DNA of 310 bases, taken from the sequence record BH153097.1, one strand, 5' to 3'. The stretch comes from a phage. The position numbers were made by a program, and so were the translations under genes. The notes under the pieces are model-generated. The model ran no database searches, was not told the DNA's origin, and worked only from the letters and a program-made list of their open reading frames with translations. The stretch's first letter is position 1, and each line of letters starts with the position of its first letter. This document shows positions 1 through 310 of this stretch, piece after piece.

Positions 1-3
1 CCC

Positions 4-28
4 TGTCAACAACTATTTTTTAATTTTT
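4..28 (-). promoter_or_regulatory. Sigma70-type -35 hexamer (TTGACA, 9..4 on -) preceded by an A/T-rich UP-like tract (28..11); the -10 and transcript would lie beyond the window start
   Basis: Reverse complement of 1..28 reads aaaaattaaaaaatagttgTTGACAggg, a perfect -35 consensus with an A/T-rich tract immediately upstream. The -10 element is outside the window, so this is only half a promoter. Confidence 0.2.
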
Positions 29-67
29 ACCCGCTCGTGCATTAATACGCATTTTCTGCATAGCCAT
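20..67 (-). CDS. Candidate micro-ORF, 15 aa (MAMQKMRINARAGKN) from ATG 67..65, or 13 aa (MQKMRINARAGKN) from ATG 61..59; same frame and stop as the 75-aa ORF
   Basis: Near-consensus Shine-Dalgarno AAGGAG (71..76 on -) sits 3 nt before the first ATG and 9 nt before the second; the second spacing is typical for initiation. Alternative reading: this is only the C-terminal part of the 75-aa ORF with an internal SD-like sequence. Confidence 0.2.
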   Translation of the reverse strand: MAMQKMRINARAGKN

Positions 68-247
68 GATCTCCTTATACTCAACACACCATAAGCGGGT
101 AGCCCATGATAAACGCTCATAACGCTGGCAGAAATCGGACCATAGATATTGTGCACCGTTCGGCATAGTTGAAAGAAGTATTCGATTTTGTGATCCAAGA
201 ATCAATCGACCGTCACATTTTGTTTCTCGCTCATCAAAATGTAACAT
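20..247 (-). CDS. Hypothetical small protein, 75 aa (MLHFDERETKCDGRLILGSQ...RINARAGKN); no family recognised
   Basis: Supplied ORF track. ATG at 247..245, TAA stop at 22..20. Weak SD-like GGA(T)GG at 251..256 (- strand), 6 nt upstream of the ATG. In-frame upstream stops (TAG) bound the ORF. No hydrophobic segment and no motif I recognise. Could be a chance ORF. Confidence 0.25.
   Translation of the reverse strand: MLHFDERETKCDGRLILGSQNRILLSTMPNGAQYLWSDFCQRYERLSWATRLWCVEYKEIMAMQKMRINARAGKN
27..101. repeat. Long-range perfect 9-bp inverted repeat (27..35 ttacccgct vs 93..101 agcgggtaa) enclosing the SD and micro-ORF start
   Basis: Reverse complement of 27..35 equals 93..101 exactly, with a G/C-rich core (cccgc/gcggg). 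The 57-nt enclosed segment contains the AAGGAG SD (71..76), both micro-ORF ATGs and most of its coding sequence; the arm at 27..35 lies within the micro-ORF's last codons. Confidence 0.3.
71..76 (-). promoter_or_regulatory. Shine-Dalgarno-like ribosome-binding site (AAGGAG)
   Basis: Reverse complement of 71..76 (ctcctt) is AAGGAG, followed on the - strand by atc-ATG-gct-ATG. The hexamer is seen directly; its function is inferred. Confidence 0.35.
215..242. repeat. Perfect 8-bp inverted repeat with 12-nt spacer (acattttg / caaaatgt); candidate operator or mRNA hairpin
   Basis: 215..222 acattttg is the exact reverse complement of 235..242 caaaatgt. The right arm ends 3 nt from the ATG (247..245) of the 75-aa - strand ORF, so on that mRNA the hairpin would cover codons 2-10. 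Confidence 0.35.
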
Positions 248-268
248 TATCCATCCGAGGATAGTTAA

Positions 269-285
269 AGGCGCATAACGCGCCT
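269..285. terminator. GC-rich stem-loop (aggcgc-ataac-gcgcct); possible weak intrinsic terminator or structured regulatory element, orientation unresolved
   Basis: Perfect 6-bp stem (269..274 pairs with 280..285, 5 of 6 pairs G:C) with a 5-nt loop. On + it is followed by AUAUUAUCU, on - by UUAACUAU. Neither is a clean U-tract, so the terminator call is tentative. Confidence 0.25.
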
Positions 286-310
286 ATATTATCTAACCAA
301 TTAATCTTTT

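Follow-up and report, generated by a model that had tools for sequence, protein, structure and literature searches.

Two overlapping open reading frames (ORFs) on one strand of a short phage sequence raise the question of whether either of them is a gene. We analyzed the whole stretch of 310 bases, henceforth referred to as the window, which has 39.7% G+C, in line with the roughly 40% given in an earlier note on this DNA. The - strand carries a 75-aa ORF with an ATG start (20..247) and a 61-aa ORF with a TTG start (13..198), which lie in different frames and overlap over 20..198, as the earlier note had described. The + strand is indeed closed: its longest complete ORF is 31 aa and its longest stop-free stretch is 51 codons. 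The view that frames of this length are unlikely by chance also held. Shuffling of the window (n=5000) gave an ORF of at least 75 aa in 1.3% and of at least 61 aa in 8.4% of cases, and a 75-aa plus a 61-aa ORF on one strand was seen in 0 of 5000 dinucleotide-preserving shuffles.

The window is a patchwork of three distant pieces of the Escherichia phage RB49 genome and is not contiguous as a natural locus. RB49 is a Krischvirus, a T4-like coliphage (reference AY343333). We resolved the window by local BLAST against RB49 and Phi1 loci and then verified the result. Piece A (window 1-71, - strand) is 100% identical to RB49 158961-159031, at the end of ORF262c; its match extends by one base (window 72, RB49 159032) by way of a common TGATCT. 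It contains the last codons and the TAA stop (window 22..20) of RB49ORF262c and, beyond this stop, part of the PeSL promoter cassette that comes after the gene: its AT-rich stretch and, at window 9..4, its -35 box TTGACA. The second piece (window 68-195, - strand, RB49 44331-44487) is taken from the 3' part of ORF076c and has a 29-nt internal deletion. It consists of piece B (window 67-174, - strand, RB49 44330-44437) and piece B' (window 171-195, - strand, RB49 44463-44487), both 100% identical to RB49. Piece C (window 192-310, - strand) is 95% identical to RB49 57205-57322 and covers codons 2-41 of ORF112c, a 60-aa gene that has the same annotated length in RB49 and in five other Krischvirus genomes that we examined.

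The three source genes (ORF112c, ORF076c and ORF262c) are spaced 12.7 kb to about 100 kb apart in the RB49 genome. All pieces are collinear, have the same orientation and are sense-strand coding DNA of real RB49 genes. The - strand thus carries a real coding signal, as the earlier note had suspected, and the excess of ORFs over random sequence arises because all of them are sense-strand RB49 coding DNA in the same orientation. We found 59 phage records that match the window, and all of the identifiable ones are Krischviruses. The largest part of the window covered at a single place was at most 38% in any of these records, and we detected no match at all in E. coli genomes and plasmids. In an alignment of six genomes, piece C has the RB49 alleles at nearly every site where the five other Krischviruses differ. 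Because piece C has RB49's own alleles, the source of the DNA is RB49 itself or something close to identical.

Read from its start, the 75-aa ORF crosses the pieces in turn. It begins at the internal Met23 codon of ORF112c and follows residues 23-41 of this protein, in which ET replaces VS and R replaces A, in the native frame until it reaches the GATC at 192-195. It then crosses B' out of frame, which generates a 6-aa linker (QNRILL). The 29-nt deletion restores the native frame of ORF076c, and the ORF continues through a C-terminal module of about 35 residues (STMPNGAQYLWSDFCQRYERLSWATRLWCVEYKEI). At the GATC at 68-71 it enters the last 15 codons of ORF262c in frame, and ends with the tail MAMQKMRINARAGKN and the stop. 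Comparison with PHROGs gave the same order: residues 1-21 match positions 23-43 of 60 in phrog_16425 (ORF112 family), residues 21-61 match positions 103-143 of 144 in phrog_16117 (ORF076 family), and residues 58-75 match positions 53-70 of 70 in phrog_14966 (ORF262 family). The 75-aa ORF is an accidental in-frame fusion of three gene fragments rather than a gene. The earlier note had proposed that at least one of the two ORFs may be a real small gene, and this proposal is not supported: the 75-aa frame owes its length to the chance in-frame joining of fragments of three RB49 genes.

No protein with the architecture of the 75-aa ORF was found among 5.8 billion sequences, and no protein identical to its product is on record. 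The best database protein covers 69% of it and is an ordinary member of the ORF076 family; the closest proteins are likewise ordinary ORF076-family members and end in ...EYKEITK. Residues 25-60 are 97% identical to ORF076 homologues, and tblastn coverage of the 75-aa ORF did not exceed 48% in any of the 59 matching Krischvirus genomes. Compared with the family of RB49ORF076c and phi1 ORF076 (phrog_16117, with the related phrog_10407), the product shares the conserved C-terminal module (residues 26-60, 97% identity) but lacks the N-terminal two-thirds and the last two residues (TK), and the missing parts are replaced by fragments of two unrelated genes.

The ORF076 C-terminal module is itself variable in its surroundings. 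Proteins of 72, 75, 117, 119 and 144 aa carry the module PVEITKSNTSFVKVGEKTHISTMPNGAQYLWSDFCQRYERLSWATRLWCVEYKEITK after differing N-termini; examples are P0001, P0002 and P0003 and those at locus L002 2493-2927 and locus L004 1360-1719. PHROGs divides the proteins with this module into phrog_16117 and phrog_10407. The varied N-termini point to genuine natural module shuffling of a small phage protein.

The 61-aa ORF is an ordinary alternative frame that is open by chance. It has no homologue in PHROGs (best E-value 0.13) or in Pfam. The earlier note was right in its expectation that at most one of the two frames is of consequence. Native RB49 also has this frame open across piece B, within an unannotated 72-aa ORF on the sense strand. 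This native ORF (locus L004 1275-1493, - strand, RB49 44237-44455) shares sequence with both the end of ORF076c and the start of ORF075c. It is one of 28 unannotated ORFs of at least 50 aa, 5 on the sense strand and 23 on the antisense strand, in 11.2 kb of DNA from the RB49 hyperplastic regions.

Two overlapping ORFs on the same strand also recall the hok/mok type I toxin-antitoxin arrangement, which the earlier note had thought unlikely here. We agree with this assessment. The window differs from hok/mok in that it has neither a hok/sok RNA match nor a hydrophobic toxin and in that every piece is of phage early-gene origin. Searches of Rfam returned nothing better than E = 0.34, and that hit was to an unrelated miRNA family; the Pfam search of the two products gave no match, and both products are charged and not membrane-like by inspection. 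A true pair of genes that overlap on one strand, hok/mok-like or other, is in our view next to impossible. The pair of ORF lengths that no shuffle reproduced speaks for it; the 61-aa product, however, lacks a PHROGs or Pfam homologue and any Rfam family, its frame is one of many open alternative frames in native RB49, a promoter scan detected no promoter-like site in the window, and the DNA is a patchwork of three loci.

We examined where the pieces meet. Joint 1 is the GATC at window 68-71, inside the TGATCT (67-72) that is common to pieces A and B, and there the RB49 position jumps from ~159.03 kb to ~44.33 kb. Joint 2 is the GATC at window 192-195, common to pieces B' and C, and connects RB49 44.49 kb with 57.2 kb. 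The GATC sites of these two inter-locus joints, at 68 and 192, are the only ones in the window. At both joints GATC is present in both RB49 parents. Piece A is bounded by adjacent RB49 GATC sites (locus L003 1497 and 1568), and so is the piece formed by B and B' (locus L004 1369 and 1522), which is one complete GATC fragment. Piece C begins at a GATC (locus L001 2501) and leaves the window before the next site (2756). The four RB49 bases that precede window position 1 are also GATC. The right end of the window (310) is away from any GATC, which fits the end of a read and adds no support.

This coincidence with GATC is beyond chance. The density of GATC in these RB49 loci is one per 187 bp. In simulated random joins (n=200,000), GATC fell within the bases shared by the two parents at a frequency of 1.85e-4. 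If a shared 4-mer is required, the probability that it is GATC is 0.0055 per join and 3e-5 for two joins, a figure that leaves out the GATC-flush end of the window. All three junctions, including that of the deletion, share 4-6 nt, and at least 4 nt are shared in only 2% of random joins. The GATC pattern is the signature of digestion by an enzyme of the Sau3AI, MboI or DpnII type followed by sticky-end ligation, and we know of no recombination, assembly or template-switching process that yields such a pattern. The joints lie at recognition sites, the pieces are bounded by these sites and, according to the literature, the source DNA is cleavable. RB49 DNA contains unmodified cytosine, without hmC and ghmC, and is cut by ordinary restriction enzymes that are sensitive to cytosine modification, although cutting at GATC specifically is not among the data of that study (PMC4041780).

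We consider it likely that the window is an in vitro (laboratory) chimera of GATC-cut RB49 fragments. In this scenario an enzyme of the Sau3AI, MboI or DpnII type would have digested RB49 DNA completely at its GATC sites, and three unrelated fragments would have been joined by sticky-end ligation, head to tail and in the same orientation. Sau3AI is insensitive to Dam methylation. The most likely vehicle would be a multi-insert shotgun clone whose single-pass read began at the vector junction (window position 1). Alternatively, the window may be a product of 3C-type proximity ligation. Standard Hi-C with fill-in would leave GATCGATC, and this junction is not present in the window. Because the three fragments all derive from early genes with a common transcribed strand, their reading frames are preserved on the - strand. 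By virtue of the two GATC joints and the 29-nt deletion, three of the four sub-pieces happen to fall into one frame, and this chance alignment generated the 75-aa ORF, which starts at an internal Met of ORF112c; the 61-aa ORF is a chance frame. Neither ORF is a gene of any phage.

The window shares most of its features with Sau3AI, MboI or DpnII multi-insert clones and with 3C products made without fill-in: complete fragments from distant loci, a single intact GATC at each joint, one sequence end that is flush with GATC, and source DNA that is cleavable, with unmodified cytosines. It differs in its 29-nt deletion and three private changes, which need an extra cause such as read errors or clone instability. 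The chance that three fragments have the same orientation is 1 in 4 and that their frames line up is about 1 in 9. These agreements in orientation and frame are mild coincidences that count against a ligation chimera.

The 29-nt deletion (window 171-174) is flanked by direct repeats, GAAA...GAAA (TTTC on the - strand), and causes a frame shift of one base, which leaves B' (window 175-191) out of its native frame and B in it. It is atypical as a base-calling error, which counts against the ligation chimera, and calls for a separate event, probably of slippage type, such as slippage at the TTTC repeats, whether in the clone or in the phage stock. Piece C differs from RB49 by five substitutions and a 1-nt insertion that are found in none of the six Krischviruses. 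The private changes are three: GC has become CG at window 207-208, AAA has become TTT at window 223-225, and there is an extra base (A) at window 263. The native start of ORF112 is just outside the window; owing to the extra A, the native ORF112 frame is lost before the internal Met codon (247..245) is reached, and a product read from the native start would be frameshifted and reach a stop after about 26 codons. Every private change is more than 170 positions from the GATC-flush end, and this placement fits a single-pass read. We interpret the five substitutions and the 1-nt insertion, and possibly also the deletion, as errors of reading or cloning.

Some of these changes lie near inverted repeats. 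The change of GC to CG at 207-208 converts RB49 AATGCA to AATCGA (window 204-209), which pairs perfectly with TCGATT (182-187) in B' and forms a 6-nt inverted repeat across joint 2. This could be a templated (quasi-palindrome) change that followed ligation, or could be due to chance. As a general account of the private changes, quasi-palindrome correction was rejected: only the GC to CG change fits, and neither the TTT/AAA change nor the insertion improves a hairpin. Within ORF112 we also noted the inverted repeat GTCACATTTTGA / TCAAAATGTAAC (locus L001 2521-2554 in RB49, window 212-245), whose 12-nt arms are 92% complementary and separated by a 10-nt spacer. The TTT/AAA change is at the loop edge of this repeat and shortens its arm by one pair. 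A hairpin at window 212-245 could have caused read errors.

We compared the window with a known mechanism of natural shuffling in these phages. Small ORFs in the hyperplastic regions of RB49 and phi1 are shuffled by recombination of PeSL cassettes; each crossover falls within PeSLs, in the interval from the -10 box to the SD/ATG, and neighbouring cassettes take part (Arbiol et al. 2010, PMC2839356). A PeSL consists of an AT-rich stretch, sigma-70 -35 and -10 boxes and a stem-loop, followed by the SD and ATG of the next ORF. The window resembles the products of PeSL shuffling and mini-circles in that it involves the same phage, the same hyperplastic regions and similar small ORFan genes, and its low end has the AT-rich stretch and TTGACA of a genuine PeSL. 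In contrast to PeSL shuffling, its joints are in coding sequence, at GATC, and link loci that are 12.7 kb to about 100 kb apart. A complete PeSL cassette is absent: window 1-19 is the AT-rich part with TTGACA, cut at a GATC within the RB49 stem-loop. We rejected a PeSL mini-circle or shuffling product as the origin of the window: such a product would have its crossover inside two PeSLs and a hybrid PeSL as a result, and the joints of the window are all in coding DNA of ORF262c, ORF076c and ORF112c.

The PeSL that follows RB49ORF262c is a textbook example (locus L003 1478-1525, - strand, RB49 about 158938-158985). Its TTGACA and TATACT boxes follow an AT-rich stretch and enclose the stem-loop GGGGATCGGCGATCCCC. 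This stem-loop has two GATC sites, and the window begins directly after one of them.

The other end of the window was considered as a PeSL as well. Window 250-310 could be read as a -10 box, a stem-loop, an SD and an ATG that drive the 75-aa ORF; we rejected this reading, as the segment is conserved N-terminal coding sequence of ORF112. The distance from the upstream gene to the start of ORF112 is 8 nt, both in RB49 and in the five other Krischviruses examined. The segment includes a hairpin, GGCGC-N5-GCGCC, at window 270-284 (locus L001 2578-2592, with homologues at L005-L009), which on the + strand was flagged by a scan as resembling a terminator. Across the six Krischviruses the stems of the hairpin do not vary and the loop does. 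As RB49 and its relatives have this hairpin within ORF112 coding sequence, it is neither a PeSL stem-loop nor an intergenic terminator.

We searched for the joints in nature. They were not found in 50,697 phage records, and none of the 59 matching Krischvirus genomes spans a joint. Exact-pattern scans found none of the three joints (A/B, deletion and B'/C) in IMG/VR, neither the A/B nor the deletion joint in JGI metagenomes, and neither the A/B nor the B'/C joint in GTDB genomes. As a positive control, the native piece B sequence was found in IMG/VR. A natural variant phage was rejected as the source, as the joints tried are absent from the phage records, IMG/VR, JGI metagenomes and GTDB genomes. 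We also rejected a simple deletion derivative of RB49, since the implied deletions remove tail-fibre and other essential genes. A genome with this order of pieces would be without 44.5-57.2 kb, including tail-fibre gene 38 (RB49 45367-46143), and without about 49 kb across the map origin. On T4-type maps such a deletion would also remove replication genes. A deletion genome of this kind could not be a viable phage because the tail-fibre gene 38 region and the ~49 kb are missing.

Other routes to a mosaic were weighed against ligation in the laboratory. The chimera could have formed without restriction and ligation, by template switching in PCR or MDA, by an assembly error, or by generation or splicing in a computer. 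Template switching and synthetic splicing typically give products like the window, with several joints in 310 bases, short stretches of sequence shared at the joints, and small private errors. Assemblers, however, join at shared k-mers of 21 or more bases, and the 4-6 bases shared at the joints of the window are too few for an assembler. None of these processes gives a reason for GATC joints, a GATC end and complete GATC fragments (p about 3e-5 or less), and we regard an origin of this kind as unlikely.

We have still less confidence in a natural mosaic ORFan, present in an unsampled RB49-like phage or in a defective or mini-circle-like DNA and formed by microhomology-mediated illegitimate recombination of distant early genes; such an origin appears quite improbable. 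The 4-6 nt shared at all three junctions speak for it, and so does the known shuffling of small ORFs in the hyperplastic regions of Krischviruses (PMC2839356). The C-terminal module of ORF076 does occur behind different N-termini, and the fusion is in frame and has a native stop that is followed by a PeSL -35 box. On the other hand, both inter-locus joints are specifically GATC, the window start is flush with such a site, and each of the first two pieces makes up an entire GATC fragment; we know of no recombination pathway that predicts this pattern. Moreover, known crossovers are inside PeSL cassettes and those of the window interrupt coding sequence, a frameshift has put the native ORF112 start out of frame, and the joints are absent from every collection searched. 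A GATC-specific process could also have acted in the cell: the host would have restricted RB49 DNA at GATC, host or phage ligase would have re-ligated the fragments, and the product would have survived as small encapsidated or recombined DNA. We judge such an in vivo origin to be very improbable.

The laboratory chimera, our preferred explanation, carries a caution for the annotation of phage sequences. A short record with a statistically unusual pair of ORFs can be a ligation chimera of sense-strand gene fragments, and annotating the 75-aa product as a hypothetical protein would place a non-existent fusion protein in databases. Whether joints fall on restriction sites is a quick test for such chimeric records. 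The window has no bearing on an open biological question unless its joints exist in vivo. If an in vivo origin were true, the window would represent a restriction-driven route to new phage genes, in which three ORFan fragments are fused in frame.
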